Both the position numbers and the translations under genes were made by a program. 64,000 nt of DNA, taken from Candidatus Marinacidobacterales bacterium. Its GTDB lineage: Bacteria > Acidobacteriota > Vicinamibacteria > Marinacidobacterales > DATDRI01. This document shows positions 10,988-59,218 of this stretch, in pieces; within the stretch, counting starts at the first letter, position 1, and each line of letters begins with the position of its first letter. The notes below the pieces were generated by a model that saw only the letters and a list, made by a program, of their open reading frames with translations, had not been told where the DNA came from and did not search any database. The stretch covers positions 128,001 through 192,000 of the forward strand of contig CBDCNP010000002.1 in the NCBI GenBank assembly GCA_965219415.1, written 5' to 3'.

Positions 10988-11056
10988 ATAAAGACACGTC
11001 CTCGACGAGTAAAGTATGCGAACATCGAACTCGGTCCGGACGGTTCAGGGGAGAAT

Positions 11057-13055
11057 TTACCTCCCTTCCGCCCTGCTTCGGCTTGTCGCGGGTGGAGCGT
11101 CGAGCGCTGGGTTGCGATCGAAGAAATTATAAGGCCGCAGCGTCACCTGGTGCCATCCCAGGCTGTAGACCGGCCAGTCCTCGGCCGACGGGACATGGTG
11201 AAAGCCGAGCGTGTACCAAAGCACGATGTCTTGGTTCTCGACGTCCCGTCCATGAGCGGTCCAACGCGGGCAGACCTTGTCCTGCTTTGGATTGGTTCGG
11301 GTACTTGCCTGCGGCGAAGCGTTCCTCCGCATCATACGGTGTGACCCACAAGTGGTAGTTCGCGAAAAGAGCGCGGGCTAGCGGGGTACCGTTCTCCGAC
11401 ACCAGCGGCAGCGCATTTCCCGAGGACTCGATCGCATAGCTCACCGGATAGCCCACCCCGTTCCGCTGGTTCGCGTTCACTACGCGCCAAAGCGCCGGCC
11501 GTTCGTAGCTCAAGCGGTACTTTGCTTCCGAGTCCTTCTTGGAGGTCTTCGATCGAACCCGCCAAATGCCTCGGCGGGGACTCTTTTCGCCGAGTTGCTC
11601 GACCACAAGGGTGTCGCGGACGAAACTGTTCTCAGTTCCGTCCACGTCGAGATCGAGCCGGATCGAGAAGAAGTGATCATGATTGATGCCGACGCGGCCG
11701 GGCGCGATCAGAGGCCCCCATGCGGTGTCGTCCGCAGCGCTGGAGTCAGAGACGTTCATCGCCGCCACGCCTTTGATCGAGTCGACTCCGCTAGCGCCTC
11801 CGCGGAAAGTGAGGTTGCCCTTCTGATCGAAAAGCCAATCGAACACGTAGTCGTAGTTGCCGACCGTTGCGATGTAGCGAACCACGAGCCCCAGAGCGGG
11901 ACGGCTCTCCGCCTTTGCCGTCACGAAGTCCGTGTGACGCCACAGTGGATCGCCGGTCGGCCGCTCGAAAATACAAATCCGGTTCTCGAGAGTATCGGCG
12001 CCTCCCGCAGCATTCGCCATCACCGGGGAGAGAAGAGTGGCGCTCTCTGGGCAGTCGGATCCAGGCAAGAGCCTTGTTCCCATCGTGCCGAGACCGTACT
12101 CCCCCTCGTCCATGTAGTTCCGGTAGTACCATCCTATCGTTGGATCCTGATAGGGCACGAAGATCTCTGCCAGCGTGCCCTGGTAGAGCACGGAGCGACG
12201 GTCTCCGTCGTCGTTCCAAGACACGAGGGAGAGCACAATACCCATCCGTAGATCCCAACGAATGTGAAACGACCAGTTTTGCCATTCCACCGTCGAGCCA
12301 TTCGACGGTGAAGTTGCTACCCTGTGGTGCCGAGAAATACATAGGCTTAACTTCGCGCATGTTTCCGATGGAGTCTGGATCGAGGCCGGGTCTTCCCGGA
12401 GGTATCGGCACCACACCGGTGTCGGTTACCTCGATGACTTCTTTCGTATCGAGGTCGACGGTGGCGAAAAGGCCTTCGATGGGCGTGCTCGCATCCGTTG
12501 TCAGCCCTCCCGTATCGAAACAGTCGACCTTGACAATTCGCTCTGGTTTGCTCAGCCTCGCGCCCGAAGTTTCCAACCGTTCGAGGGAAACAGCAAAGCT
12601 GCTCGAAGTCGGCAATGCCGCGCTTCCGAAGACCCTCCTGCATACGGGAGTCTCCGAGTGCCGCTTCGATACCCGCAATAAGATCCGGCAACACGAGAAT
12701 GGGGACTGCGCCAGGAAACCTCACGAAAAGACGCCACTTCGCGACGGCCTAGATCCACCACAGCCTCGTAGGTCTTTGAACCTTTCCGAAGAACCACGTT
12801 CGCCGCCCGCGGAATAGGCATCCCCTTCCGCCAAGCAAGCACCGTTTCCTTCCGCGGTTCACGTAGGGTGATCGAACTAAAAAGCGTTGCCTTGTCCGCA
12901 TGGCCTGCGCCCCGTAGTAACGCCACCGCGGCGACGATCTCGGAGGCGTCGAGCGCATCCATTGGGTGTGGGGCAGATGCTCCGGCGGTGTGAGTCGCGA
13001 ATAGACACGAGATCACCGTAGTAAAGAGAAACGCCCACGGCAGTGGTCTCTGCAT
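11057..13055 (-). pseudogene. tynA: Copper-containing amine oxidase (TynA-like), about three frameshifts (~12715, ~12300, ~11270)
   Basis: Signal peptide + HPMDAL N-domain; TVGNYDY (TPQ consensus NYD/E); NHDHFF and LGFHHVP copper ligands; LRPYNFFDRNPALD C-terminus, spread over four ORFs. Confidence 0.85.
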
Positions 13056-44791: not shown

Positions 44792-45646
44792 TCAGTGTTC
44801 CGGCTGGCCACCGTCGGATGGTTTTGCAGCCGCGTCGATCGCATTACGAGCCGCCTCGAAATGGCTTCCCATCTTGGCATGGGCTAGATCGGCGCGCGCT
44901 TCTTTGAGACGGCGCTCCATCTCGACCACGGCTTCCATCAACATGTCGGCGTTGCTCGAGAAGATGTCGTCCCAGATAGCGGCGGAGCTCCCCGCGAGGC
45001 GAGACAAGCTACGAAAGACGGGTCCACCGAGCTCGGTGCCTCGCTCGACCGACGCTGCCTGCTCGCACAGGACGAGAGCGAGGATCTGCGGTAACTGACT
45101 GACCACCGCGACCGCCCGATCATGTGTAGCGGCATCCACCGTAATCGGTTCGCCTCCCACCGCTCGAACGATCTCGCGGAGATCGGAGAGGCCTGATGAT
45201 TCATTGGACATCCTTGGGACGAGCGCCCAGGCCGCGCCTCGAAACAAATCGGGCTCGGCCGCCTGCAGTCCGGAGGTCGCCTTCCCCGCCATCGGGTGGC
45301 CTCCGACGAAGTTGACTTCGTCCGCGAGCGTTTCCGCGGCCGCCATGACGTTTCTCTTGGTGCTCCCCAAATCCGTCACCAAGGAGCCAGGTCGAAATGT
45401 CGACGCGAGCTCACCTATTTGTTCGACGATCGTCGCAACCTGGGCTCCCAAGACGACGACGTCGGCATCTCGAACCGCCCTTTCCGCGTCCACCTCCGTC
45501 TCGTCGACGAGCGAACGCCTACGAGCCTCTTCCAGGACGTCGGGTGCATCATTACCCACCAAGACCCAGTCCGGCCGAGCACGCTTCAACGCCATGGCCA
45601 GGGAGCCACCCATGAGCCCGAGTCCAACAAAGGCGACGCGCTTCAT
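44792..45646 (-). CDS. tyrA: Prephenate/arogenate dehydrogenase
   Basis: GLGLMGGSLA, TDLGSTK, GGHPMAG, HDRAVAVVSQLP, WDDIF. Confidence 0.92.
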   Translation of the reverse strand: MKRVAFVGLGLMGGSLAMALKRARPDWVLVGNDAPDVLEEARRRSLVDETEVDAERAVRDADVVVLGAQVATIVEQIGELASTFRPGSLVTDLGSTKRNVMAAAETLADEVNFVGGHPMAGKATSGLQAAEPDLFRGAAWALVPRMSNESSGLSDLREIVRAVGGEPITVDAATHDRAVAVVSQLPQILALVLCEQAASVERGTELGGPVFRSLSRLAGSSAAIWDDIFSSNADMLMEAVVEMERRLKEARADLAHAKMGSHFEAARNAIDAAAKPSDGGQPEH

Positions 45647-45653
45647 CGATCCA

Positions 45654-46712
45654 TCATTCGGCGGGTCGACGCTCGCTCGAATGCTCCACCGGTGACGTCA
45701 CGGAACGTCCAATAGCGGTGGCGATGATGCGTATCTCTTCCATGAGCCCTTGGAATTGCTCGGGGTACAGAGATTGCGCGCCATCCGAGAGGGCCTGGTC
45801 CGGATGATTGTGGACTTCAATGAGTAGCCCGTCGGCACCGGCGGCCACCGCGGCGCGCGCCATCGGCACCACCTTTTCCCTTCGGCCGGTGCCGTGGCTC
45901 GGATCGACGATGATCGGCAAGTGCGAAAGTTTCTCGATGATAGGGATGGCAGATAGATCGAGTGTATTCCGGGTGTATCTTTCGAAGGTGCGAATACCTC
46001 GCTCGCAGAGGATCACCTGATGGTTGCCTCCAACCATCACATACTCTGCAGAGAGAAGCCATTCTTCGATGGTCGCGGAGAGGCCACGCTTGAGCAATAC
46101 CGGTTTGTCCACTTTCCCCAGTTCCTTGAGCATGATGAAGTTTTGCATGTTGCGGGCGCCCACCTGAAGAATGTCAACGTATTGGGCGACCAACGGGATG
46201 TGCGTCGTATCCATGACCTCGGAGATCATGAGCATCCCGTTCTCGTCCGCCGCCTCACGTAGGTACTTCAAGCCCTCTTCCCCCAGGCCCTGAAAACTAT
46301 AAGGCGACGTCCGCGGCTTGAAGGCTCCCCCCCGGAGGAAGGTCGCTCCCATTTCCCGCACGCTCGCCGCGATCTCCCTGATTTGATCGCGACTCTCGAC
46401 CGAGCACGGGCCGGCCATGGCCACGACCTCCTCCCCGCCGATGGTCACGTCCCCGATGCGCACGATGGTGTCTTCGCGTTTGAAGGTGCGCCCGGCGAGC
46501 TTGTAGGGCTCGCTGATCCGCACCACCTCCCGCACTCCCACTAGCACCTCGAGGTCGCGGGGGTCCGCCGCGGTTTTCGGAATACCGACAGCCCCTAGAA
46601 CCGTGCGCGTCTCACCGGTCGAACGATGGATGTCATAGCCCCATTCGGTCAGACGCTCGATGACGTTTTGGATGTCTTTCTCTTTAGCGCTGTGCTCCAT
46701 TATGATGACCAT
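45654..46712 (-). CDS. aroF: DAHP synthase (type I-beta, N-terminal ferredoxin-like/ACT domain)
   Basis: AGPCSVES, RGGAFKPRTSPYSFQGLG, QVGARNMQN, CERGIRTFE, DPSHGTG. Confidence 0.96.
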   Translation of the reverse strand: MVIIMEHSAKEKDIQNVIERLTEWGYDIHRSTGETRTVLGAVGIPKTAADPRDLEVLVGVREVVRISEPYKLAGRTFKREDTIVRIGDVTIGGEEVVAMAGPCSVESRDQIREIAASVREMGATFLRGGAFKPRTSPYSFQGLGEEGLKYLREAADENGMLMISEVMDTTHIPLVAQYVDILQVGARNMQNFIMLKELGKVDKPVLLKRGLSATIEEWLLSAEYVMVGGNHQVILCERGIRTFERYTRNTLDLSAIPIIEKLSHLPIIVDPSHGTGRREKVVPMARAAVAAGADGLLIEVHNHPDQALSDGAQSLYPEQFQGLMEEIRIIATAIGRSVTSPVEHSSERRPAE

Positions 46713-46727
46713 GATCTTCCCTACCTC

Positions 46728-47102
46728 CTACTTCTTAACCTTCTTGCGGCTGGGCCTTTTCTTTTTTCGTGCGCGGGTAGGCCTCTTCGTTGGTTTACTT
46801 CCCTCCGGCCTGGGACCCGCACTGCAAACAACTCGCTCCGTGCTCCGCGACTCGTCGATGATCCGCTCGAATAGACGGCGAACCGACTCTTCGTTCAAGG
46901 GCCCATCGTTCGCACTCGTGACTCGCTTGAGGATCTGAACCTCGCGACTCGGCACGTAAATCTCCATATCGTGGGCTCGCTTGATCCAACCGATCTCGAT
47001 CGAGCAGTTCGCCCGCTCGTTCAACAGAACCAGCAGCCGGTCGTCTAGCGCATCGATCCGTTGGCGCCAACTGCCGACCGCAGCCTTGACTTTGCTTCCC
47101 AT
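46728..47102 (-). CDS. Chorismate mutase (AroQ/CM_2) with a basic C-terminal tail
   Basis: WRQRIDALDDRLLVLLNERA...IYVPSRE...GPLNEESVRRLFERIIDESR. Confidence 0.9.
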   Translation of the reverse strand: MGSKVKAAVGSWRQRIDALDDRLLVLLNERANCSIEIGWIKRAHDMEIYVPSREVQILKRVTSANDGPLNEESVRRLFERIIDESRSTERVVCSAGPRPEGSKPTKRPTRARKKKRPSRKKVKK

Positions 47103-47104
47103 CT

Positions 47105-47743
47105 TCAACGCCTTCGCCGCTTCAGCTCTTGCCCCACAGCTGCCGGGGACACCCCGGCTTGCTCCCACAGCACCAGAAGGTGATAAAGAAGATCTGCCGA
47201 CTCTCGGCATAGCTCATCAGGGTCGTTGTTCTTTCCGGCGATGATCACTTCGGCCGCTTCTTCGCCGACCTTCTTCGCAATGCGGTCCACTCCCCCCTCG
47301 AAGAGGCGGGTGGTATAGGAGCCCTCGGGGCGCTTTTTCCGTCGGTCGCGAATCAGCGCCGCCAGCTCGCCTATCGTCTCCGAGAAAACCGTCTCACCCG
47401 GATTCTCAGAGTCGGACACCAATGGAGTGAAGAAGCAGCTGGTCTCCCCGGTGTGGCACGCCGGGCCCTCGAGCTGGACGCGCACCAGCAAAGAGTCCTG
47501 ATCACAATCGGCTATCACTTCGATCACCTTCATCACGTGACCCGACGTCGCTCCTTTTCGCCACAGCTCGTTACGACTTCGTGACCAAAAGTGCACCGCA
47601 CCGGTCTCGAGGGTCTCGTCGAGGCTTTCTTGGTTCATGCAAGCCACCATCAACACGCGGCCACTAGTAGCGTTTTGAACCACGGCGGGTATGAGCCCCT
47701 TGTCATCGAACTTAAGGCTTTCGACCTTGGTCTTTTTCGACAT
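47105..47743 (-). CDS. hisIE: Bifunctional phosphoribosyl-AMP cyclohydrolase / phosphoribosyl-ATP pyrophosphatase
   Basis: WSRSRNELWRKGATSG, DCDQD, CHTGETSCF, KKVGEEAAE, ADLLYHLLV. Confidence 0.96.
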   Translation of the reverse strand: MSKKTKVESLKFDDKGLIPAVVQNATSGRVLMVACMNQESLDETLETGAVHFWSRSRNELWRKGATSGHVMKVIEVIADCDQDSLLVRVQLEGPACHTGETSCFFTPLVSDSENPGETVFSETIGELAALIRDRRKKRPEGSYTTRLFEGGVDRIAKKVGEEAAEVIIAGKNNDPDELCRESADLLYHLLVLWEQAGVSPAAVGQELKRRRR

Positions 47744-47750
47744 GAGTTGC

Positions 47751-48533
47751 TCAGTTTCTCGCGGATCGGGACGATCTGGTTAGGCGGACCGGAACCCCGC
47801 GCTCGGCCAAGAAATGTTTTGCCTCGCGAACGCGATAGGTCCCGAAATGAAAAACGGAAGCGGCGAGGACAGCGCTCGCCTTGCCTTCGGTCAGTGCTTC
47901 TTCCAGGTGTTCGAGCCTCCCGCAGCCCCCGGATGCGATGACCGGAATGGAGACCTCTTCAGCGATCGCGCGCGTGAGTGGTATGTCGTAGCCCTCCTCC
48001 GTGCCGTCACGATCCATGCTGGTCAGGAGAATCTCACCCGCCCCCAATTCCTCCGCCCGTTTCGCCCAGGCCACCGCATCGATCCCGGTAGCGGTGCGGC
48101 CTCCGTTGACGAACACTTCGAACCCACCGTTTCCGCGTTTTGCGTCGATGGCAAGCACCATGCACTGTTTCCCGAACCTCTGAGCGCCTTCATTGAGTAG
48201 CTCGGGCTCTTTCACCGCCGCGGTATTGATGGCGACCTTATCCGCTCCTGCTTCTAGAATGGATTTCATGTCATCCACTGTTCGAATGCCGCCCCCCACG
48301 GTAAAGGGGATGGTCAACGTGTCTGCCATCCGCTCCACCATGCGACGCTTTGTGGCCCGCTGCTCGTGGGAGGCGGTGATATCCAAGAAGACGAGCTCGT
48401 CGGCCTCTTCTTCGTCGTAACGCGACCCCGCCTCTACCGGATCACCAGCATCCACGATATCAACAAAACGTACGCCCTTGACCACGCGTCCCTGGTCGAC
48501 GTCCAAGCAAGGGATGATCCGCTTTGCCAGCAT
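47751..48533 (-). CDS. hisF: Imidazole glycerol phosphate synthase cyclase subunit
   Basis: [39 protein letters not shown]; start at ATG 48533. Confidence 0.97.
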
Positions 48534-48534
48534 G

Positions 48535-49266
48535 TCAACCCGAAACCGTTCCCGCTTCGATGGCGGCGGCCAATGTGAAGACTTTGTCGTAGAGCGCACG
48601 GCCGACGATGACCGCTTCCACCCCGTCTTCCCCTGCCGGCTGAAGACGACGGAGATCTTCCAGCGAGCCGATCCCACCCGAAGCGATGACCCGCGCCCCG
48701 GTTTCCTTCGCGAAGCGTTTGACCCCGTCCACGTTGGGTCCAGTGAGAACGCCGTCTCGCGAGATGTCGGTATAGATGAACCGGCTGGCGCCTCTATCCA
48801 CCCATTGCTTGCCGAGCTCGAGGGGTCCGAGCGCCGAGTCCTCTTCCCAACCGCGAATGGATACTTTGCCTTTCCGCACGTCGACCCCGATAGCGACCGC
48901 CTCCGGAGCAATCGCCAACGCCTGTTGCACGACCGACGGGGTTTCCACGGCCGCGGTGCCGAACACCGCCCGAGCTGCCCCCACCTGCATCAGCCATTCG
49001 AAGTCTGCGATGTCCCGAATCCCGCCTCCGACCTGAACCGAGGCTTGGACCGCGCTGAGTATTTCTTGAATGGCGGAGCGATTCCCCCGCTGGCGCTCGA
49101 AGGCGGCATCGAGATCAACGATGTGGAGCATCTCCGCTCCTTGCGCCTGCCAATCCCGAGCAACTTCCGCGGGATCGTCACCGTACACGGTTTCCGTTCC
49201 GCGCTCTCCGCGCACCAGACGCACACATCGTCCCCCTTCGATGTCGATCGCCGGGATGATGGTCAT
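48535..49266 (-). CDS. hisA: ProFAR isomerase
   Basis: [42 protein letters not shown]. Confidence 0.96.
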
Positions 49267-49278
49267 TGTGTCACCGCG

Positions 49279-49887
49279 TCAGGCCCGCCAGTAGTTCGTC
49301 AGGACTTTGAGGCCAAGCTGCTGACTCTTCTCCGGATGAAACTGGATCCCTGCCACGCGATCTTTGCTGGCTACCGAACAAAACGACACATCGTAATCCG
49401 TCTCGGCCTTGACCGCGTCGTCCCCGTCCGGATCGACGTAGTACGAATGCAGAAAATAGAAATAGTCGCCAGTCTCGACCCCTTCGAGAAGCCGGGCCGT
49501 TCCGTGGAGCTCGAGTTGGTTCCACCCAATATGGGGGACGGGGCGTTCGGTTGAGAAACGACGGACCTGCCCTGGAAGCAAACCGAGCCCCGAGACACCG
49601 GGGGCTTCCTCGCTGGCATCGAAGAGCATCTGGAACCCGACACAGATGCCGAGCAGTGAAGCGCCCTCCTCGATAGCCTCCCTCAACGGAGCCTCAAGGT
49701 CGCGGTCTCGAAGATTTCGCATTGCCGCTCCGAAATGTCCTACACCTGGCAGGACTAGTTGCTTCGCACGACGGATTTCCTCGCATTCTGCCGAAAGCTT
49801 GCTCGGCGCCCCGATGCGCTCGAAGGCACGCGCGACGCTCCCCAGGTTCCCGACGCCGTAATCGACGACGATCAGATTCTCCGGCAT
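49279..49887 (-). CDS. hisH: Imidazole glycerol phosphate synthase glutaminase subunit
   Basis: DYGVGNLGSV, LPGVG, GICVGFQ, PHIGWN, QFHPEKS. Confidence 0.97.
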   Translation of the reverse strand: MPENLIVVDYGVGNLGSVARAFERIGAPSKLSAECEEIRRAKQLVLPGVGHFGAAMRNLRDRDLEAPLREAIEEGASLLGICVGFQMLFDASEEAPGVSGLGLLPGQVRRFSTERPVPHIGWNQLELHGTARLLEGVETGDYFYFLHSYYVDPDGDDAVKAETDYDVSFCSVASKDRVAGIQFHPEKSQQLGLKVLTNYWRA

Positions 49888-49890
49888 GGG

Positions 49891-50481
49891 CTAGTCCTTG
49901 AGTGTCCCTTTGGTCGAAGGGACTTCGGAACCACCAGTTCGGCGGACCGCTTCGCGAAGTGACCGTGCGAAACCCTTGAAGACGGTTTCGATGATGTGGT
50001 GGTTGTTGCCCCCGTGAAGCGATTCCACGTGGAGCGTCAATCGAGCGCGGTCGGAGAGAGCGCGAAAGAAGTCCTCGAAGAGCTCGGTTGGAAAGTCTCC
50101 TACCCGATCGGAGGTGAAGCGAACTCTCCAGCTCAGGTAGGGACGGCCCGAAAGGTCGACCACGACTCGAGCCAACGCCTCGTCGAGGGGAACGAAAGCG
50201 ATTCCGAAACGGTTGACCCCCGACTTGTCTCCCAGGGCTTCCTCCAAACAATCACCAAAGACCAGCCCGATGTCTTCCACCGTATGGTGGAAGTCCACGT
50301 GCAGATCGCCCTTCGCCTTGACCGAGAGATCGAGATTTCCGTGGTGGGCTAGCAGCTCCAACATGTGATCGAGAAAACCGATTCCGGTGGACACATCGGC
50401 CTTGCCGCTACCGTCCACGGTCAGCTGAACTTCGACCTCGGTCTCTTTGGTCGAGCGTTTCTTCTGCGCGATTCTATTCAT
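49891..50481 (-). CDS. hisB: Imidazoleglycerol-phosphate dehydratase (monofunctional)
   Basis: GIGFLDHML, DFHHTVED, NNHHIIE, PSTKG; no N-terminal phosphatase domain. Confidence 0.97.
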   Translation of the reverse strand: MNRIAQKKRSTKETEVEVQLTVDGSGKADVSTGIGFLDHMLELLAHHGNLDLSVKAKGDLHVDFHHTVEDIGLVFGDCLEEALGDKSGVNRFGIAFVPLDEALARVVVDLSGRPYLSWRVRFTSDRVGDFPTELFEDFFRALSDRARLTLHVESLHGGNNHHIIETVFKGFARSLREAVRRTGGSEVPSTKGTLKD

Positions 50482-51578
50482 TGAAGCTCCTCCACCGTCT
50501 CGCGAAGAGCACCTAGGAACTTGACGTTCTCATCGGGCCGGCCCACCGTCACCCTCAGGGCCCGGCTCAATCTGGGGTTCGAGCTCAAGTTACGAACCAA
50601 GACGCCTCGGGCGAGCAAACCGTCGAACACTTGCGTTGCCCCGGCGCTGCATTCGAATAGGATGAAGTTGGCCGCCGACGGATAGGGGTGAATGCCGTCC
50701 AAGTCGCGCAGCTTCCGATACAGCGCATCCCTTTCCTCCACGATCACGTTGGCTTGTTTCCGAATGAGCTCGTAATGATCACAGACCGCGAGCCCGACGG
50801 CGCGCGAAAAACCGTTCAGCGCGTACGGCAGTTGTGCTTTCTCTACCTCTTCCGCGAGCGCAGGCGCCGCGAGCAGGTAGCCAATCCGGAGGTCGGCGAG
50901 TCCCACGGCCTTCGAAAAAGTGCGCGACAAAGCCATGTGCGGATACCGGGGGAGGAGCTCCCTCGCAACCGAACCGCCGAACTCGAAATAGGCCTCGTCT
51001 ACCACCAAGAGACCTGGGCATTCCTTCGCGATTCGTTCGATTTCTGCCGCACTGAGCGTCGAGCCAGTGGGATTGTTGGGAGAGCACAAGAATACTAGCG
51101 CAGGTTGGTTCTCCTTTATCGCCCGGACGAAAGCATCGACGTCGTAGCGGTAATCCGGCCTCATTGGGACTTCCACCCTGTCCGCGCCCAGCATGCGGCT
51201 GACGTAGCCGTACAAGACGAAGGACGGAGTCGGGTAGACGACGCTTCGGCCCCGCTCGAGCGTCGAGAGGGCCAGCATATGGAGCAGCTCGTTCGAGCCG
51301 TTCCCCACCAAGACACCCTCGGCGGGCCAGTCATTGAGACTACCCAAGGCGCTCTTGAGCTCAGCCGCTTGTACGGGTGGGTATCGGTTCAGGGCAAGCT
51401 CGGACAGCGCGTCTCGAATGGCTCGTCCGAGGGCCTCGGGCGGATCATAGCTGCTCTCGTTTTGGTCGAGCTTGACCGATGCCGCGTGTGGCTCGAGTCG
51501 GTAGGCTCGGATCGAGCGAACCTCGGGTCGCAAACGGCCGAGAAGAGGCTCCGCCAGATCTCTTTCGCGGCTTGTCAT
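50478..51578 (-). CDS. hisC: Histidinol-phosphate aminotransferase
   Basis: KLDQNE, GNGSNE, CSPNNPTG, VDEAYFEF, RTFSKA. Confidence 0.95.
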   Translation of the reverse strand: MTSRERDLAEPLLGRLRPEVRSIRAYRLEPHAASVKLDQNESSYDPPEALGRAIRDALSELALNRYPPVQAAELKSALGSLNDWPAEGVLVGNGSNELLHMLALSTLERGRSVVYPTPSFVLYGYVSRMLGADRVEVPMRPDYRYDVDAFVRAIKENQPALVFLCSPNNPTGSTLSAAEIERIAKECPGLLVVDEAYFEFGGSVARELLPRYPHMALSRTFSKAVGLADLRIGYLLAAPALAEEVEKAQLPYALNGFSRAVGLAVCDHYELIRKQANVIVEERDALYRKLRDLDGIHPYPSAANFILFECSAGATQVFDGLLARGVLVRNLSSNPRLSRALRVTVGRPDENVKFLGALRETVEELQ

Positions 51579-52867
51579 TCCGAGAACCTCGTTGCAATCG
51601 ATCGAGCGTGCGCCTCGAACCCCTCGGCGCGGGCGAAGGCTTCGATGTCGTTTCGGTCCCGTGACAATTTCTCGCGACTATAGCGAATGAGGCTCGATCG
51701 CTTGATGAAATCATAAACACCCAGCGGAGACGCGAATCGCGCCGTGCCTCCGGTCGGCAGAACATGGTTGGGACCCGCGTAGAAATCTCCGATCGGCACC
51801 GGGGAGCTCGCACCCATAAAGATCGCTCCTGCATTCCTAACGCGTTGCGCTAGTGCTTCGGCGCCGTCGGCCATGATCTCGAGATGCTCGGGAGCCAACT
51901 CGTCGACCAACGCCACTCCTTGATCCAGATCGCAGACCAAGATCGCGGCGCCGTGTTTCTCGAGTACGGTGCGGATCATGGGGGCGCGCGGGAGGCCTTC
52001 CATCTGTTTGAGTATCTCGACGGCGACGGCGTCGATGAGCTCACGGGATGTGCAGACCAGAATAGCTCGCTCGTCTCCCGAACCGTGCTCGGCCTGAGAC
52101 AGCAGGTCGGCCGCCACGTATGCTGGATCGGCCGCGCCGTCCGCAAGCACGACGATTTCGCTAGGGCCGGCGAGAGAATCGATTCCCACGACGCCGTAGA
52201 GGAGTTTTTTCGCGCTCGTGACGTAGGCATTGCCGGGCCCGACGATCTTATCGACGCGCGGGACCCTTGCCGTGCCGAAGGCCATGGCGGCGACCGCCTG
52301 TGCGCCACCGACGCGAAACACCTCGGTCAGCCCAAGATCTTCGATCGCCGCGGCAAGGGCAGGTGAACGCTCGATCGTGCCGGGGGGTGTGCAGACGACG
52401 ATTCGGCGCACACCAGCGATCTGCGCCGGTACCGTATTCATGATGAGAGTCGACGGGTAGACCGCCTCCCCTCCTGGCACATAGACACCGACCGTATCGA
52501 GGGCACAGATCTTTTGCCCCACCAGGCTGCCGTCTTCGAGCTCAATGCTCCAGCTGGCTTCCTTCTGCCGTTCGTGGAAGCGACGGACGTTGTCTGCGGC
52601 GTTCACCAGTACCGACCGAATTGCCTGGGTAGCATTGGCTGCTTCGGCTGCGATCTGCCGGGCATCCACGCGCAATTCGTTTGGTCCGAGGCGGACACCG
52701 TCTAGCCTCTCCGCGAGCTCGACCAACGCATCATCCCCTTCGAATCGTACGGAACGAATGATCTCTTCGACACGCGTCACAATCTCAGGAGGTGTCACGC
52801 CCGCACCGGAGAGGCCCTCTCCCCGTTCGGTGAGGAAATCGTCCGGATTTTCGAACACGCGAATCAT
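51575..52867 (-). CDS. hisD: Histidinol dehydrogenase
   Basis: GVYVPGG, GGAQAVAAMAFG, GPGNAYV, AGPSE, QAEH, APEHL, GPNHVLPT. Confidence 0.97.
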   Translation of the reverse strand: MIRVFENPDDFLTERGEGLSGAGVTPPEIVTRVEEIIRSVRFEGDDALVELAERLDGVRLGPNELRVDARQIAAEAANATQAIRSVLVNAADNVRRFHERQKEASWSIELEDGSLVGQKICALDTVGVYVPGGEAVYPSTLIMNTVPAQIAGVRRIVVCTPPGTIERSPALAAAIEDLGLTEVFRVGGAQAVAAMAFGTARVPRVDKIVGPGNAYVTSAKKLLYGVVGIDSLAGPSEIVVLADGAADPAYVAADLLSQAEHGSGDERAILVCTSRELIDAVAVEILKQMEGLPRAPMIRTVLEKHGAAILVCDLDQGVALVDELAPEHLEIMADGAEALAQRVRNAGAIFMGASSPVPIGDFYAGPNHVLPTGGTARFASPLGVYDFIKRSSLIRYSREKLSRDRNDIEAFARAEGFEAHARSIATRFSE

Positions 52868-53502
52868 TGCTCCACCTCGCGGGCCAAAGACGAAACGAAC
52901 TCACCCAAGACGCGCCCCTTGAGCCGAAAGCTGGCCCGGTTGATGATGAGCCTCGCCGTGCTCTCGAAGAGCACTTCATCGATTTCCAGCCCGTTGGCCG
53001 CCATGGTTTTACCGGTTTGCAGGAGGTCGACGATGCAATCCGCCAACCCCAGGACCGGGGCGAGCTCGACCGAGCCGGAAAGGAGAATGACTTCCACCGG
53101 AATTCCGTGACCGTGAAAGTAGCGAGACGCTACTTCGGGATACTTCGTCGCAACTCTCACCAATGGCAGATCCCGATAAGCCCCGGGTCGCTGATTCTGA
53201 TCACGAGCCACCACCATCTGACAGCGACCAATGCGTAAGTCGAGCGGCTGGTAGACGTCCGGGTTGATCTCGGAAAGAACATCGTTTCCGACGATGCCGG
53301 CATCGACGACGCCGTGCTCGACGTAAGTCGGCACGTCGCGATCCTTTACGAGCACCGACGACTGATCTCGCCTGTTCGAGACGTGCAACTTCCTGGCCTC
53401 GCGGACGTCGTTCGGAAGGGCGAAGCCCGAGCGCGTGAGAAGCGCCACCGTTTCGTCGAAGATCCTGCCGGTGGGAAGCGCCAGGCGTATGGCGGTCGTC
53501 AA
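52864..53502 (-). CDS. hisG: ATP phosphoribosyltransferase (short form)
   Basis: DVPTYVEHG, RVATKYP, GSVELAP, IVDLLQTGKT; 212 aa. Confidence 0.95.
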   Translation of the reverse strand: MTTAIRLALPTGRIFDETVALLTRSGFALPNDVREARKLHVSNRRDQSSVLVKDRDVPTYVEHGVVDAGIVGNDVLSEINPDVYQPLDLRIGRCQMVVARDQNQRPGAYRDLPLVRVATKYPEVASRYFHGHGIPVEVILLSGSVELAPVLGLADCIVDLLQTGKTMAANGLEIDEVLFESTARLIINRASFRLKGRVLGEFVSSLAREVEQ

Positions 53503-54584
53503 CCTAACCTCACCTTCTCGCCCTTTCGCCGGCGTTCCATGGCTTCCCCGAGAGCTCGCGCGGGTTCTTTCTCGAGGGTGATGGCTTTCGACGCTGGTTT
53601 GGGCGGGAGCTTTTTCTCGTCGACCTTGTGCGCCAAGCGATCGAGGGACAAGGAAAAACCAACCGCTGGATGCGGCATACCGAATTTCGTTAGGAGGGAG
53701 TCGTATCGACCTCCTCCACCAAGCTCCAGCCCAGTGCCCGGTGCGTGAAGCTCGAAGATCATTCCCGTGTAGTAATCAAAATCTCGAACCTCGCCGAGAT
53801 CAAATTGGATGCGGTCGCCGAAGCCGAGAGCATGAAGCTCTTTGGAAATGGCACCGAGCCGTTCCAACGCGGCTTGGCTCTCCGGCCGAGTGGCAACGGC
53901 CTGCGCTCGATCGAGGATCTCGAGGCCGCCGAACAAACGCATCGCTTCCAAGACCGCGGTCGGCACTACTCTTCCCAGAACGGCACCGGCGCGATCGGCA
54001 TTTCGAGCTCGCATCGCTTCTAGAAGTTCTGGCTGGACGCCCGGTGATACCTCCGAATCCTCGAGCACACCGACCAAGAAACCTGTATGCCCGAGCGTCA
54101 GGACCGCGTCGTTCACCCCCAGTCGCCCCAGTGCCTCGAAGGCCACGAGCAATACTTCCAAATCGGCGGCCAATCCGTTGCCGATGTGCTCTAGGCCGAT
54201 TTGAAAGAGCTCCTTTTGTTGTCCCGCCTGGGGCGGTTGGTACCTGAGCACTTCGCCGCTGTAGAAAAGTCGCAATGGCAGCGAGCGGTCTTGCATCCGG
54301 GAGGCAACGACTTTGGCCACCAGTGCGGTGAAGTCGGGCCGGAGCGCCAACAACTCCCCCGCCCGCCCGATGAAACGATAGATCTGCTCGGCGAAACTGG
54401 GCCCACCGGCACGCGCAAAGACCTCGTAGTAGTCGAAGAGAGGGACGATAATTTCTTCGTACGACCAGCCGGAAAAGACGTCACCGACCACCCGCTCCAC
54501 TTGCTTGCGGAGTCGCGCCTCGCGCCCGTAGAAGCATTGCACTCCTGAGGGTATCTGTAGGTTAGAGCGTTGATTCATAGCCAC
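53499..54584 (-). CDS. hisZ: ATP phosphoribosyltransferase regulatory subunit
   Basis: HisRS-like LALRPDFT, FQIGLE, DYYTG, GGGRYD, AVGFS; adjacent to the short hisG. Confidence 0.93.
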   Translation of the reverse strand: MAMNQRSNLQIPSGVQCFYGREARLRKQVERVVGDVFSGWSYEEIIVPLFDYYEVFARAGGPSFAEQIYRFIGRAGELLALRPDFTALVAKVVASRMQDRSLPLRLFYSGEVLRYQPPQAGQQKELFQIGLEHIGNGLAADLEVLLVAFEALGRLGVNDAVLTLGHTGFLVGVLEDSEVSPGVQPELLEAMRARNADRAGAVLGRVVPTAVLEAMRLFGGLEILDRAQAVATRPESQAALERLGAISKELHALGFGDRIQFDLGEVRDFDYYTGMIFELHAPGTGLELGGGGRYDSLLTKFGMPHPAVGFSLSLDRLAHKVDEKKLPPKPASKAITLEKEPARALGEAMERRRKGEKVRLG

Positions 54585-54663: not shown

Positions 54664-56154
54664 TTAGCTCTGACCCCAGCGTCGGTGCATTTCGGCTCGG
54701 GCCGCGCTTTCCATGACCCCCGCGTCTCCCGTCCTTCCGGTCCACAACTTCGACTGCCGCACCGCCTGGGCCACAAGCATCTCGAGACCCGGCACCGCGA
54801 AAGCCTTTCTATCTCTGGCCAACTCGAGGATCTCCGTTTTCTCCAGGTCGTAAATCATATCCAGAACAAGAGCACCGGGCCGGAACGCCTCGATCTGCTC
54901 CGCGGAGTCAACGTCGATCAGTCCTTCATATAAAGGAGTGGCGTTGACCAAGATATCCCATCGATGAGCGGCAAACTCGCCTATTTCGCCCGCATCTCCC
55001 CCTACGAGGTCGGCGACGCTGCGTGCTTGCTCCAACCTGCGCGCGAGAACCACGACCTCGGCCCCCGCCTGTCCCAATCCAACTGCGGCGGCGCGGGCCG
55101 CCCCACCACCACCAAGAACTAACGCGCGTTTCCCTTCGATACGGAGACGACGGGACACCGGATCCACGACCCCTTCCACGTCGGTATTGAACCCGCACCA
55201 CCGTCCGCCTCGAGCGACAACCGTGTTGACCGCCCCCGGCTCCTCGGCCGACCGATCCACGTCGCCTAGGAAGGGCAGGATAGATTCCTTGAACGGCCGG
55301 GTTACGGAAAAGCCGGCGACACCGAGCTCCTTGGCGGCTGGAACGAAGAGAGCGAGACTCTCTTCTTCAAAGGGAACGTAGATCGCGTTCAATCCGGCAT
55401 GGGCGAATTGGGCGTTGTGCATCGCCGGCGAGAGGCTACCGAGCGCCGGCCGCCCGAGTATCCCGTAGATTTTTGTTGTCGCGTCTACCGTCCGGAAACG
55501 GTAAGTGCTCAGGAGCTCGTCGAGATCGAGCTGTCCTGGACCCGTCGCAGGTAATCCGCGCGCCGCGGCATAGGTGAGGTTGCCGCCTAGCCGATTGGCG
55601 ATCACCCGACCGGCGGTCCCGGCGGGGCCCATAGGGATCGGAGCGAATCCGACGCCACGGCTTCGAGCAAGTCGACCCGCCTCGCCGAGCCGAACCACAT
55701 CGGCAAGCGAGCCTGCCCGCGCCGCCACCTTGACGATATCGGCGCCCGCTACCGCGGCGCGCTCAACGATCTCCGACAAATCGTCCGGCATCCCATCGAA
55801 TTTGTGGTGAGACAGAATCAGCCGTGAAGAAGTTTCCATCGTACGAAGCTCGTCGGAGAAGGAGTCCAGTTCGATGTCAACGAAGTCGAAGCCCAACCCC
55901 ATAGCCCGTCGCAAAATCTCGAGGCGCTCGCGCTCCGAGCCCTGGAACACTCCTCCCTCTCGCCGAGTGCGGCAGGTAAGGATTAGAGGCCTGGTGCCCG
56001 CCCTCCGTAGGCCTTCTAAATCGAGGTCTTGGAGAGCGTCAACGCGAAGCTCCACGAGGTCTGCACCCTCGCAGGCGTCCTCAGCAGCCCGCCGCATTTC
56101 CTCGGCGGTAGACGCCATAACCGCCGCCACTACGCGAGTCGCAGCCCCCGCCAA
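54664..56154 (-). CDS. aroDE: Fused type I 3-dehydroquinate dehydratase / shikimate dehydrogenase; start uncertain (TTG 56154 or 56184)
   Basis: DHQase I: VELRVD, TCRTRREGG, ILSHH, DIVKVA, APG-like TGPGQ; SDH: SLSPAMHN, SVTRPFK, AVNT, NTDVEG, GGGGAARA, GLEMLVAQA. Confidence 0.9.
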   Translation of the reverse strand: MAGAATRVVAAVMASTAEEMRRAAEDACEGADLVELRVDALQDLDLEGLRRAGTRPLILTCRTRREGGVFQGSERERLEILRRAMGLGFDFVDIELDSFSDELRTMETSSRLILSHHKFDGMPDDLSEIVERAAVAGADIVKVAARAGSLADVVRLGEAGRLARSRGVGFAPIPMGPAGTAGRVIANRLGGNLTYAAARGLPATGPGQLDLDELLSTYRFRTVDATTKIYGILGRPALGSLSPAMHNAQFAHAGLNAIYVPFEEESLALFVPAAKELGVAGFSVTRPFKESILPFLGDVDRSAEEPGAVNTVVARGGRWCGFNTDVEGVVDPVSRRLRIEGKRALVLGGGGAARAAAVGLGQAGAEVVVLARRLEQARSVADLVGGDAGEIGEFAAHRWDILVNATPLYEGLIDVDSAEQIEAFRPGALVLDMIYDLEKTEILELARDRKAFAVPGLEMLVAQAVRQSKLWTGRTGDAGVMESAARAEMHRRWGQS

Positions 56155-56182
56155 GATGGGGTCGGTTCCCCTCTTTGTATCC

Positions 56183-56214
56183 AAAAAAAAACCTCTTCAG
56201 GCGACCTGAAGAGG
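56183..56214 (-). terminator. Intrinsic terminator (attenuator) in the operon leader
   Basis: CCTCTTCAGG-TCG-CCTGAAGAGG followed by T9, located between the promoter and the first structural gene. Confidence 0.9.
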
Positions 56215-56304
56215 AAAATACCGTCCGGCATCTTACATCCCCAGGCTCCCTATTGTGGCCGGCGTGTCAACGTGTCAGCGTGACACGCCGGGCTAGGCGC
56301 CCAG

Positions 56305-56424
56305 CTAGGCCCCGTAATGGTACCGATGGTACGTAAGATGCGCGAAACTACCGTCTGTACAAGCCCCGAGACACGGAAACGCCTTCAACGCCGTCATCGC
56401 TAGCACTGTCACTCGTGGGCTCAT
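56305..56424 (-). CDS. His/Tyr-rich attenuator leader peptide (39 aa; alternative start ATG 56397)
   Basis: MSPRVTVLAMTALKAFPCLGACTDGSFAHLTYHRYHYGA-stop; 3 His + 3 Tyr in 9 codons (56314-56340). Confidence 0.8.
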   Translation of the reverse strand: MSPRVTVLAMTALKAFPCLGACTDGSFAHLTYHRYHYGA

Positions 56425-56443
56425 TTTCGACCTTGCGCTTCAA

Positions 56444-56472
56444 ACGCTACACCCGCCACTTTTTCATGTCAA
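56444..56472 (-). promoter_or_regulatory. Sigma70-type promoter of the aro-his operon
   Basis: TTGACA-17 nt-TAGCGT, ~20 nt upstream of the leader ATG. Confidence 0.75.
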
Positions 56473-56614
56473 GTGACACTCCAGTTCCATGAGTCGCACC
56501 ACCCGCAATTTTCTGAGTTGGCGAGCACTCTTTTCTTGTAACGTCACCGCTCGGGTGCTATATAAAAAAGGTTCTCGATTTCATCGTGGACCCGAATCGA
56601 GGCGCGCCGTGAAT

Positions 56615-57136
56615 ATGAACCGGATCTTGAGATCCGTCGTTTTCTTTAAACACGTCAGCGACCGTCATGTCCATCAACTGGTGGACATGGCGCGACTGCA
56701 AACCGTAGAGAACGGAGAGGTCGTCTTCTCCGAAGGTGAGGCCGAGAACCACCTCTACCTGATCGAGAGCGGCCGTATTCAGATCTCTCGCGATGGGCCT
56801 CACTTTGGCCGCCAAACCTTCGCGCTCCTCGGCCCCGGAGATCACTTCGGCACCTTGTCGCTCTTCTACCCCGATCCCCACTTCGCGTCGGCCATCGCTG
56901 TCGAGTCGACGCGCCTTTGGATCATCCGCCACGACGACTTCCAGGCCTGCCTCCGGAAACAACCGAAGCTTGCCTTCGCAGTCCTCAAGGGAATGGTGCT
57001 CGGCATCCGAACCGCCAACGGCGAAATCCGACGGCTGACGACACTCTTCGATCAACGATCTCGCTCGGCAATCGAGCTGCCCACAAAAGGACGCTCGACT
57101 CACCCATCGGTCCCACTCCCACCCCCGACGAATTGA
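56615..57136 (+). CDS. Cyclic-nucleotide-binding domain protein (Crp/Fnr-like, no clear HTH)
   Basis: VFSEGEAENHLYLIESGRIQI...LLGPGDHFGTLSL...FASAIAVESTRLW. Confidence 0.8.
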   Translation: MNRILRSVVFFKHVSDRHVHQLVDMARLQTVENGEVVFSEGEAENHLYLIESGRIQISRDGPHFGRQTFALLGPGDHFGTLSLFYPDPHFASAIAVESTRLWIIRHDDFQACLRKQPKLAFAVLKGMVLGIRTANGEIRRLTTLFDQRSRSAIELPTKGRSTHPSVPLPPPTN

Positions 57137-57219
57137 CCCCGGCGGAACCTTCCGGAGTAACAGACCCCGGAAAACCTTGATTCGTCTCTGTTTAAGGGAA
57201 CACATCAGACGAGAGGGTT

Positions 57220-57248
57220 TTGACGGTGCCCTTCCTTTGAACTATCAT
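57220..57248 (+). promoter_or_regulatory. Sigma70-type promoter
   Basis: TTGACG-17 nt-TATCAT upstream of the S55 peptidase gene. Confidence 0.55.
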
Positions 57249-57319
57249 TAGGGTCGGTGAGTCATTCGCCCACAACTTCTTCCGTGTTGCCGACGCGGAT
57301 TCTCGAGGTTCACTTAGGA

Positions 57320-59218
57320 ATGCCCATATCCAGCAGTCGAAAGCTGAAGAGGCGTCTGCCGCTCGTCATTCTCTGGCTCTGGCTTTTCACCGTTTCCTTG
57401 CTTCCCACGCTCGGTGCGGCCTCCCAGGGTGTCGAGACCATTTCGATCGATGCGGTCGAGCCCGGCATGGTAGGTGAAGGTCGCACCGTCTTTTCCGCCG
57501 AGCAGATCGAGACGTTCAAGGTCACGATCATGGGTGTGCTGCGGAACTATGGCCCCAACCAAAACATGATTTTGGCCAAGCTCGAAGGCGGCCCCCTCGC
57601 CGAGACCGGGGTGATCGCCGGAATGAGCGGCAGCCCGGTCTACATTGACGGGAAACTGCTCGGAGCGGTGGCCTACTCCTTCCCGTTCTCCAAGGAACCT
57701 ATCACGGGAATCACCCCCATCTCAGAAATGATCGAAGCCACCGCGACGCCCATTTCACGACGCAAGGTGGCGAAGCTCGACTTTCCGCTCACACCGGAGC
57801 GACTGCGGACCGTCGCACCTCATCGGGTGCGGCCGGTCGCAATCCAGGGCGCGTCGCTCAGCGGAGTCGACCAACTCCGGCCGTATCTGGGGAAACTCCT
57901 TTCTCCTATTGCCACGCCCGCATCACTCAACGGCTTTCTCCCGGAGACCTACGACATTGCGGCCCCTTTGCTGCGGGCGCTCGGGATGGAACCCTTGCTC
58001 GGCGGCGCGATGGTGCCAGGGCTCCAGACCGGCAGCGAGATCGCGGAAATCACCACGCCCAACTCCGAGCTCACGCTGCAGCCGGGCGATGCCGTCGGAG
58101 TAGGACTCATCACGGGAGACATGGATATAAGCGCCACTGGCACCGTGACCCATGTCGACTCATTAACCGGAAGCGTTTACGCGTTCGGCCATCCTCTCTT
58201 CAACCTCGGCCCCATCGAATACCCGATGACCAGAGCCAAGGTGCACTTGGTCCTACCGAGCCTCTACAGCTCCTTCAAGCTGGCGAGCTCCGGCCCTACG
58301 GTGGGAACCTGGCTGCAGGATCGCCACACCGCCATCAAAGGAGCACTTGGTAGCCGGCCGAAGATGATTCCCCTGTCGGTCCGGGTAAAGACCAGTCGAG
58401 AACTAGAGAGATCCTATAACCTCAAGATCGTCAACGACGAGCTCTTCTCACCGGTGCTGGCCTACGTGTCGCTGATGTCCATTCTTCAGTCCACCGAAAG
58501 ACAATTCGGAACTGCAACGGTGAAGGTCTCGGCCTGGATTTCTCTGGTGGACGAGCGACGGGTGCACATCGAGGACATCTTCGCGGACCAGCAACCCGCG
58601 TTGTCTGCATCCGCCATGGCGGCAGCCCCCCTATCCTTCCTCATGACCAACGACTTCCAGAAAGTCGAAGTGGAATCAATGGAGGTCTCGATCGAGGCCA
58701 CCGAGAGCCCGCAAACCGCACGCTTGGTTCGCGCGTGGCTGGACACCGATCGCGTCGCCCCGGGCGGCACCATCTCGTTGAAGCTTTTGCTGCGCTCCTA
58801 TCGTGGTGAGGACGTACTGAAGACGGTCGACGTCGCCATTCCAACCAACGTCGGCGAAGGCAAGCTCAAGCTCCTGGTTGCCGATGCGACCACCATTTCA
58901 GCAATGGAACGTCGCGAGGCGCACAATCGCTTCGAGCCGCGCAATCTGGATCAGCTCATTCGCGCGCTCAACGCACTGCGAAAGAACAATCGCCTTTATG
59001 TGAAGTTGACCAGTCCCGATCGCGAAGGGGCCATCGTCGCGGGAGAGTACCTCTCCTCCCTGCCCCCGAGTGTAATGAACGTCTTGAAAGCAGACCGCTC
59101 GAGCGCGAGCTATATTCCTATCAACAGCTCGACCCTATGGGAGTACGAGCTGGTCACCGATTACAGCCTCAGCGGCGCGCGCGTTCTCGAGATCACGGTG
59201 GGCAACCTTCAAAACTAG
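57320..59218 (+). CDS. Secreted SpoIVB-like peptidase S55 domain protein
   Basis: Signal/TM segment; GVIAGMSGSPVYIDGKLLGAVAY (catalytic Ser motif), AFGHP. Confidence 0.85.
   Translation: MPISSSRKLKRRLPLVILWLWLFTVSLLPTLGAASQGVETISIDAVEPGMVGEGRTVFSAEQIETFKVTIMGVLRNYGPNQNMILAKLEGGPLAETGVIAGMSGSPVYIDGKLLGAVAYSFPFSKEPITGITPISEMIEATATPISRRKVAKLDFPLTPERLRTVAPHRVRPVAIQGASLSGVDQLRPYLGKLLSPIATPASLNGFLPETYDIAAPLLRALGMEPLLGGAMVPGLQTGSEIAEITTPNSELTLQPGDAVGVGLITGDMDISATGTVTHVDSLTGSVYAFGHPLFNLGPIEYPMTRAKVHLVLPSLYSSFKLASSGPTVGTWLQDRHTAIKGALGSRPKMIPLSVRVKTSRELERSYNLKIVNDELFSPVLAYVSLMSILQSTERQFGTATVKVSAWISLVDERRVHIEDIFADQQPALSASAMAAAPLSFLMTNDFQKVEVESMEVSIEATESPQTARLVRAWLDTDRVAPGGTISLKLLLRSYRGEDVLKTVDVAIPTNVGEGKLKLLVADATTISAMERREAHNRFEPRNLDQLIRALNALRKNNRLYVKLTSPDREGAIVAGEYLSSLPPSVMNVLKADRSSASYIPINSSTLWEYELVTDYSLSGARVLEITVGNLQN

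Follow-up and report, generated by a model that had tools for sequence, protein, structure and literature searches.

The 64,000-nucleotide (nt) stretch analysed here (contig CBDCNP010000002.1 of a Candidatus Marinacidobacterales bacterium, positions 128,001–192,000; hereafter the window) carries on its minus strand, at 56183–56472, an element that we read as a classical ribosome-mediated (leader-peptide) transcription attenuator. It precedes an aroDE-his-CM-DAHPS-tyrA superoperon (CM, chorismate mutase; DAHPS, 3-deoxy-D-arabino-heptulosonate 7-phosphate (DAHP) synthase), and its control block mixes three His and three Tyr codons with a single Phe codon that precedes them. We assign this reading a probability of roughly 0.6. 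That the element is a real leader-peptide attenuator is, judged from comparative sequence analysis, very probable; that it responds to shortage of both histidine and tyrosine/aromatic amino acids is a claim we favour with less assurance. The element combines a short open reading frame (ORF) with start codon and ribosome-binding site, a cluster of end-product codons, an intrinsic terminator, and mutually exclusive protector and antiterminator helices. These parts, their conservation and the alternative folds are all evident in silico. Read in the direction of transcription, the leader is built as follows.

56467–56472, minus strand: −35 hexamer TTGACA, identical in 6/6 genomes compared (L002–L006 and the window's own).
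56444–56449, minus strand: −10-like hexamer TAGCGT with TG(T) before it, at a 17-nt spacing from the −35 hexamer.
56431–56434, minus strand: Shine–Dalgarno (SD)-like AAGG, 6 nt 5′ of the leader ATG.
56305–56424, minus strand: leader ORF from the ORF list, 39 codons from an ATG start plus TAG, encoding MSPRVTVLAMTALKAFPCLGACTDGSFAHLTYHRYHYGA; homologous ORFs lie in 12/12 family loci.
56314–56346, minus strand: control-codon block, comprising F27 (56346–56344), H29 (56340–56338), Y32 (56331–56329), H33 (56328–56326), Y35 (56322–56320), H36 (56319–56317) and Y37 (56316–56314).
56322–56341, minus strand: R1, the protector strand, overlapping codons 28–35 and paired with R2 in the minimum free energy (MFE) fold of the free RNA.
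56259–56291, minus strand: spacer hairpin seen in the fold, with 11-base-pair (bp) arms (56291–56281 and 56269–56259); relatives have a hairpin of different sequence at the same place.
56227–56246, minus strand: R2, the switch strand, with R1 or R3 as alternative partners.
56205–56222, minus strand: R3, the 3′ strand of the antiterminator, whose last 10 nt (56214–56205) are the terminator 5′ arm.
56183–56201, minus strand: terminator 3′ arm (56201–56192) and a run of nine U (U9, 56191–56183), facing the 5′ arm at 56214–56205 across a 3-nt loop.

The initial annotation had named the promoter TTGACA-17-TAGCGT, the 39-codon ORF with a tail of three CAT and three TAC codons, the 11-bp hairpin and the 10-bp terminator with U9, and each of these lies where it had been placed. 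The promoter is conserved in relatives, and its extended −10 region (TGTAGCGT / TGTTAGCGT) is kept in L002–L006. It escaped a consensus promoter scan, since TAGCGT agrees with TATAAT at only three of six positions. Transcription probably starts near 56437. Purine-rich AGG(G/A) stands at a comparable distance before the leader ATG in relatives, as judged by eye. The predicted peptide ends F27-A-H29-L-T-Y32-H33-R-Y35-H36-Y37-G-A before a UAG stop codon at 56307–56305, with CAT used for all three His and TAC for all three Tyr. His and Tyr account for 1.8% and 1.9%, respectively, of the 3,623 codons across 12 operon genes, and the binomial probability of at least six His/Tyr among nine codons is P = 1.9e-7. 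A crude scan of the window's own genome for terminators with seven or more T after small ORFs rich in H, W, Y or F, a scan blind to weaker terminators, returned seven candidates, of which this leader alone was convincing.

The terminator, the best terminator-like site of the scan, has 10 pairs, six of them G-C; its hairpin has a folding energy of −15.3 kcal/mol and is unique in the 8.05-Mb genome. The R1:R2 duplex reaches −21.5 kcal/mol against a mean of −10.3 (standard deviation 2.7) for shuffled R1, while the R2:R3 antiterminator is an extended hairpin of about 17 bp and −20.1 kcal/mol that buries the terminator 5′ arm. The 261-nt leader as a whole folds at −107.4 kcal/mol (z = −2.8), and 1/200 shuffles was equally stable. 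These helices modify what the initial annotation had drawn. The segments it had paired, 56341–56331 with 56238–56228 (11 bp, one G-U) and 56245–56238 with 56212–56205 (8 bp, two G-U), are indeed complementary, but they overlap by one base only. Mutual exclusivity holds for R1:R2 and R2:R3, which overlap fully, and the antiterminator is the 17-bp extended hairpin rather than one of 8 bp. The spacer hairpin may possibly act as an RNA polymerase pause hairpin.

We modelled the switch by folding the RNA up to the terminator loop while a 28-nt ribosome footprint was moved among the codons. With the window's own RNA free or with the ribosome at the stop codon, R1:R2 forms with 16–17 bp and R2:R3 with none. 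With the footprint on F27, H29, Y32, H33, Y35, H36 or Y37, R1:R2 is lost and R2:R3 forms with 17 bp in 7/7 cases. The full-length free RNA combines 16 bp of R1:R2 with the 10-bp terminator. In these models the geometry fits ribosome footprints, R1 being uncovered only once the ribosome is at the stop codon.

We infer that the leader is translated, that translation is coupled to RNA polymerase and that each amino acid elicits a response, in the following manner. Transcription would begin near 56437 and a ribosome would translate the 39-codon leader. With both His-tRNA and Tyr-tRNA charged, the ribosome would reach UAG, and R1 would emerge behind it and pair with R2 once R2 is made; R3 would then be free, the terminator (56214–56192 plus U9) would form and the transcript would end near 56185. 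Were either tRNA scarce, a ribosome stalled on a control codon would cover R1, so that the R2:R3 antiterminator could sequester the terminator 5′ arm and RNA polymerase could read through into the operon. In the absence of translation R1:R2 would form and transcription would terminate.

Conservation was followed across 12 family loci, comprising seven genomes with an AroDE match (the window's own, G001, G002, G003, G005, G006 and G007) and five metagenome contigs found by the terminator pattern; G004 (73% complete) gave no AroDE match. AroDE identities among related loci range from 38 to 82%, and these loci are therefore not a single sequence duplicated in assembly. All 12 loci share the promoter, an ATG-initiated ORF of 38–52 codons, the control block and the terminator, and the mutually exclusive helices and SD-like motif are likewise kept across the family. 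Leader N-termini vary freely while the C-terminus is conserved: the tail reads x-H-L-T-[YFLV]-H-R-[YH]-H-Y-(Y)-[WG]-A in 11/12 loci, the departure being G005 (..I-F-W-H-H-H-H-R-G). Changes within the tail include synonymous ones (CTT/CTG, ACG/ACC, CGG/AGG, CAT/CAC, TAC/TAT and, at the stop codon, TAG/TAA); in one contig TGG>TGA shortens the peptide. H29, H33, H36 and Y37 are retained in the 10 aligned sequences (genera g1, g2 and g5), and CAUUAC (H36-Y37) is invariant within the loop of a small hairpin, so that base pairing does not explain its conservation. Two of the loci, L006 and L035, belong to G007, a genome with unpublished status, on which the tail ..GHLTLHRHHYYWA and the gene order and trpA match reported for G007 depend. 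Besides His and Tyr, the control region includes a Phe codon that is conserved (F27) and, among relatives, one for Trp, and 'His + aromatic' is a more accurate family label than 'His/Tyr'.

Judged by energy, the three helices are present in 10/10 family sequences, with R1:R2 at −19 to −29 kcal/mol (shuffled mean about −10), the antiterminator at −19 to −26 and the terminator at about −15. RNAalifold on a MAFFT alignment recovered the terminator, together with pairing between the segment after the stop codon and the 5′ part of R2, and found two-sided changes at 3/29 pairs among only about seven distinct sequences.

Downstream of the leader, Pfam labels and ORF spacing define 13 closely packed genes running in one direction on the minus strand.

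54664–56154, minus strand: aroDE, the first structural gene, a type I dehydroquinase fused to a shikimate dehydrogenase (Pfam).
44792–54584, minus strand: hisZ, hisG, hisD, hisC, hisB, hisH, hisA, hisF, hisIE, chorismate mutase (CM_2), DAHP synthase (ferredoxin-like domain) and prephenate dehydrogenase tyrA (Pfam).

The genes overlap or lie less than 80 nt apart, and their order is identical in G001, G002, G003, G006 and G007. Because N-termini were aligned with relatives, we place the true start of aroDE at TTG 56154, probably; the longest-ORF start, 56184, falls within the U tract. This is a joint His and Tyr operon that also contains aromatic genes of the common pathway. The initial proposal that the control codons match the end products of the operon holds in that His and Tyr genes are joined and codons track genes across the class Vicinamibacteria, as described below; it needs amending in that a Phe codon (F27) also lies in the block and Y37 is the only invariant Tyr.

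The class-wide comparison covered 201 genomes, 185 of which contain AroDE. Sixty further 20-kb regions and 11 earlier ones gave 71 loci, one with too little upstream sequence, leaving 70, the window itself excluded. Genes were labelled by tblastn and trp genes checked by Pfam; the leader was defined as the ORF ending just 5′ of the terminator nearest aroDE, and codons were counted in its best 12-residue span. Among 23 loci with his-containing operons, 21 have a terminator and leader, and at least two His codons occur in 21/21 (median 3) and at least two Trp codons in 6/21. All 44 aroDE-trpEGDCFBA-CM-DAHPS-tyrA operons without his genes have a terminator and leader; here at least two His codons occur in 1/44 (median 0), at least two Trp codons in 44/44 and at least one Tyr codon in 41/44, the leaders being rich in Trp, Tyr and Phe. 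None of the three loci with a lone aroDE has a terminator and leader. Overall, clusters of H, W, Y and F codons stand just 5′ of the terminator in 65/70 class loci, compared with 1/118 for an 8-residue span holding at least four such residues in the other-frame background. The terminator stem expression C[CT]TC[TC][TC]CAG matched in 42/70, and the Trp/Tyr/Phe leaders of aro-trp-tyr operons probably represent the form from which the window's element arose. The reading as a ribosome-mediated attenuator, proposed in the initial annotation, is supported as far as sequence comparison reaches.

Codon content also parallels gene loss within the lineage. The window's genus, g1, consists of G000 (its own genome), G001 (a single contig) and G002, which are 96, 94 and 91% complete. 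TrpA, the anthranilate synthase N domain (TrpE-N) and indole-3-glycerol phosphate synthase (IGPS) gave no match in 3/3 g1 genomes, sister genera having all of them, and tblastn with seven Trp proteins returned TrpF-like and GATase matches only, a pattern in the genomes that suggests tryptophan auxotrophy. The g1 leaders end ..H-Y-G-A and contain no Trp codon. trpA is present in G003, G005, G006 and G007 (4/4), and all four leaders hold a Trp codon. By the 12-residue count Trp is zero in three leaders, two of them from g1; the third, L035, does have a Trp codon, immediately beyond the span counted. G005 provides the corresponding case for Tyr: its operon consists of aroDE and his genes only, CM-DAHPS-tyrA being absent from it and a DAHPS-tyrA pair lying on another contig, and its leader has four His codons, one Phe and one Trp, with no Tyr.

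Several observations weigh against the interpretation as an attenuator sensing both His and Tyr. The his-containing operons fall into a single clade of an AroDE tree (FastTree; 100% local support), and the tree needs a minimum of two state changes and offers only one independent pair. The contrast of 21/21 with 1/44 is therefore essentially one evolutionary event followed by long retention, and the Trp and Tyr contrasts are likewise one event each. The long retention of His codons adds some weight, since the surrounding leader sequence has diverged completely (..RWRPVFHYWHP, ..VHHHRHHS and ..HLTYHRYHYGA). Among the Tyr positions Y37 alone is invariant, with Y32 replaced by F, L or V and Y35 by H in other genera, and H29 and H33 fall inside R1, where pairing may account for part of their conservation. 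The folds of relatives are less clear-cut. Their full-length free RNA has R1:R2 plus the terminator as its MFE structure in 7/10 and the antiterminator in 3/10 (L003, L005 and L043), and once a ribosome is placed at the stop codon, just 2/10 family sequences have R1:R2 as their MFE structure. As modelled, the two states are near iso-energetic and R2 emerges before R3, so that the decision of the switch would need to be kinetic. RNAalifold missed R1:R2, owing to a one-column shift of genus g1 within R2 in the MAFFT alignment, and a cross-genus matrix of R1 × R2 duplexes showed a weak preference for cognate partners and weak covariation. Precedent is sobering too. The Corynebacterium glutamicum AroR leader (Phe-Tyr-Phe), which precedes aroF and acts by ribosome stalling, is reported to respond to Phe and not to Tyr (PMC11802643); in the Streptomyces coelicolor ilvB leader, mutating candidate control codons had no effect (PMC1262725). 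By analogy, the two cases are a warning that the presence of codons is by itself no proof of sensing.

The best-surviving alternative, though an unlikely one, is that the attenuator senses histidine only, its Tyr (and Phe) codons being tolerated, structural or neutral. It draws on the constancy of the His codons in leaders of his-containing operons, the most constant of all, on the two variable Tyr positions, on class relatives with his genes whose leaders lack Tyr altogether (..CWRPIHHHHA and ..VHHHRHHS) and on the Tyr codon of AroR that confers no Tyr response. Against it stands Y37, invariant in 10/10 aligned sequences and located in an unpaired loop, as does the prevalence of Tyr in leaders of aro-trp-tyrA operons. 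Moreover, the sole family member without CM-DAHPS-tyrA in the operon is the one without a Tyr codon, and the Trp codon is gone exactly in the genus without trp genes, which argues that non-His codons are under function-related selection. Modelled stalling at each Tyr codon also yields the antiterminator.

We consider it considerably less probable still that the terminator and helices act without ribosome stalling, whether an RNA-binding protein, small RNA, metabolite or Rho is responsible or termination is largely constitutive, and that the ORF has another role such as translational coupling or reinitiation. Translation of the leader ORF is so far a prediction, the folds of relatives are not all thermodynamic switches, a divergent gene for a cyclic nucleotide monophosphate (cNMP)-binding regulator is conserved alongside, and non-regulatory roles have been proposed for leader genes (PMC4833913). 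Such mechanisms leave unexplained the excess of H/W/Y/F clusters over background 5′ of the class terminators, a cluster composition that follows the downstream genes, and the conservation of SD-like motifs and ATG starts. The models, in which R1 would be exposed only with a ribosome at the stop codon, and the lack of a match to any riboswitch, T-box or protein-binding leader family point the same way. Finally, that a chance ORF lies beside an ordinary terminator of the upstream region, with no regulatory role, can be dismissed: spurious ORFs are common in high-GC genomes (118 of at least 25 amino acids in 10 kb here), but the improbable codon cluster, the conservation in 12/12 family and 65/70 class loci, which contradicts this explanation, and the position of the terminator on the operon strand between a conserved promoter and the first operon gene leave it virtually no room.

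Further leaders in the lineage extend the attenuator interpretation to other branches of aromatic synthesis. Separate trpEGDCFBA-DAHPS operons with Trp-rich leaders, a G+C hairpin and a run of U coming after each leader, occur in G005 (L111, ~2049–2210, MTGTCSVTFANRYWWWYVS, ..NRYWWWYVS) and in G003 (L112, reverse complement, ~2085–2250, ..MTGSRSVTDSNRWWWWFGS, ..NRWWWWFGS). In the window's own genome (G000:C3, ~2192180–2192330, minus strand) a small ORF encoding MMSNRHPFISRRFFSA and a promoter-like site precede a 620-amino-acid fusion of DAHP synthase and prephenate dehydratase. A 5-bp G+C hairpin has the stop codon of this ORF in its loop and a short U-rich run after it. The ORF is kept in G002 (MMSTYRQPFPSRFFSA) and partly in G003 (relatives' loci L049, ~330–390, and L048, ~320–375), and its sequence makes it a candidate Phe leader, serving the Phe branch. 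Before the separate DAHPS-tyrA pair of G005 (L110, reverse complement, ~10916–11150) we also observed an 8-bp G+C hairpin with U5 just 5′ of the ribosome-binding site, and an ORF with W-T-Y-Y-S-Y that ends in the hairpin loop; this is a possible, though uncertain, Tyr leader. The arrangement suggests that each DAHP-synthase paralogue may go together with a single terminal branch and with a leader whose codons match.

A broader scheme, which we put forward tentatively and at slightly less than even odds, would unite these leaders. One ancestral Vicinamibacteria chassis of promoter, leader ORF and conserved terminator would have had its sensor re-programmed codon by codon: Trp/Tyr/Phe originally, His added with insertion of the ten his genes, Trp dropped in the genus losing tryptophan synthesis and Tyr dropped where tyrA left. 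The window's element would then be a true His-or-Tyr (perhaps Phe) OR-gate, and three DAHP-synthase paralogues would be split among leaders with His/Tyr, Phe and Trp codons. If true, this split mirrors, at the level of attenuation, the three feedback-specific DAHP synthase isoenzymes of Escherichia coli.

Other architectures were seen upstream of aroDE in the class. In aro-trp-tyr operons (L039, L041, L050–L060 and L076–L109) the last leader codons (E-E-A, G-E-A or E-G-A; GAAGAGGC-like) are complementary to the terminator 5′ arm, making a simple two-helix attenuator. In family f2 (L009, L012, L013, L014, L015, L017, L018, L020 and L021), small ORFs with scattered His codons (..SSHVFGHGRHIVG, ..GPHHIVG, ..RAHHI and ..HPVHPVHPRG) follow a TTGACA promoter 5′ of aroDE; no U-tract terminator is visible upstream of aroDE at these loci, and the ORFs may represent a translational or Rho-dependent variant. 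A leader-finder requiring a start codon missed at least eight leaders visible by eye, and one without that requirement was too noisy, with antisense counts of at least five in 17/70; the class-wide counts given above come from the version anchored on the terminator. Phylum-wide, a strict terminator pattern, which fails to match the window's own terminator, occurred in 6/27 sampled class genomes and in 2/274 outside the class, the latter two being unrelated hairpins without U tracts.

Many relatives have a gap of ~0.8–1 kb between aroDE and hisZ (L036, 2125–2920; L033, L038, L062–L065, L069–L071 and L075; L040, 2178–3771) where the window has none; in G060 the gap is occupied by a 530-amino-acid HisS/HisZ-like ORF with 25% identity to HisZ. 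On the other side of the leader, the divergent cNMP-binding (Crp/Fnr-like) regulator gene occupies 56489–57136 on the plus strand, its true start probably lying near 56605, and is kept next door in relatives. The intergenic stretch 56473–56600 contains a motif, TATATAGCACCCG...CAAGAAAAG, kept in family relatives. The regulator might exert a further control, at the level of protein, over this promoter region.

Although attenuation by leader peptides is textbook material, nearly all documented cases come from Proteobacteria, Actinobacteria and a few Firmicutes; the element described here is a clear, testable example in the Acidobacteriota. A 2010 survey stated that leader peptides had by that time been recognized in Proteobacteria and Actinobacteria alone, apart from a new Firmicutes case, and that almost no predicted Acidobacteria attenuators had assigned functions (PMC2965389). 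What is new, besides the phylum, is a single leader mixing codons for the end products of two unrelated pathways, matched to an operon in which his and aromatic genes are fused. Across the class, the series of leaders, in which regulatory codons follow gene gain and loss down to an apparent tryptophan auxotrophy, makes the evolution of an RNA sensor readable from genomes. Annotation pipelines gain a rule for such unannotated regulators, and synthetic biology a natural multi-input attenuator.

The element matches no known RNA family. An Rfam scan of 55000–58000 at E ≤ 10 gave no match overlapping 56183–56440, His_leader RF00514 included, and eight related loci gave 0 matches at E ≤ 0.1, which bears out the expectation that it is not a known riboswitch, T-box or leader family. 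Weak matches outside the leader and below gathering thresholds were taken as chance: wcaG-like at 56441–56533 (E 1.5), naRNA4-like (E 6.3) and, in the 5′ coding part of aroDE, fluoride-riboswitch-like at 56065–56131 on the minus strand (E 0.035, 19.3 bits against a gathering threshold of 34). Likewise, the initial annotation knew of no described His+Tyr leader, and our full-text literature search, with subscription papers and supplements outside its reach, turned up neither a described His+Tyr or His+aromatic leader nor any account of attenuators in Vicinamibacteria.

In mechanism the element belongs with the classical trp, his, thr and ilv attenuators. One close counterpart is hisL of E. coli and Salmonella (RF00514), which has seven consecutive His codons. 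Like the window's leader, hisL has a short ORF with His control codons, alternative hairpins in series and, ahead of the first his-pathway gene, an intrinsic terminator, and it follows the same logic of stalling (PMC9413887). It differs in sensing His only, whereas here three His codons are interleaved with Tyr, the operon adds aroDE, CM, DAHP synthase and tyrA, and the phylum is Acidobacteriota. The multivalent enterobacterial leaders of thr (Thr and Ile) and of ilvGMEDA and ilvBN (Ile, Leu and Val) mix their codons such that any shortage relieves termination. The amino acids they sense come from a single connected family of pathways, whereas His and Tyr/aromatics belong to separate pathways joined here only by operon fusion. 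AroR is alike in that aromatic codons control an operon with a DAHP synthase, and is set apart by its description as an actinobacterial leader with neither His codons nor his genes. In the Bacillus subtilis aromatic supraoperon, aroFBH-trpEDCFBA-hisC-tyrA-aroE, the aro and trp genes, tyrA and a his-pathway aminotransferase gene share one transcription unit, regulated by the TRAP protein and not by a leader peptide; it includes hisC only, whereas the window's operon holds the whole his pathway. Also close are the leaders of other Vicinamibacteria aroDE-trpEGDCFBA-CM-DAHPS-tyrA operons, which share the site 5′ of aroDE and a related terminator stem. They contain two to four Trp codons plus Tyr and Phe and almost no His, and their last codons form the antiterminator strand, whereas in the window this role falls to a separate R2 behind a spacer hairpin.

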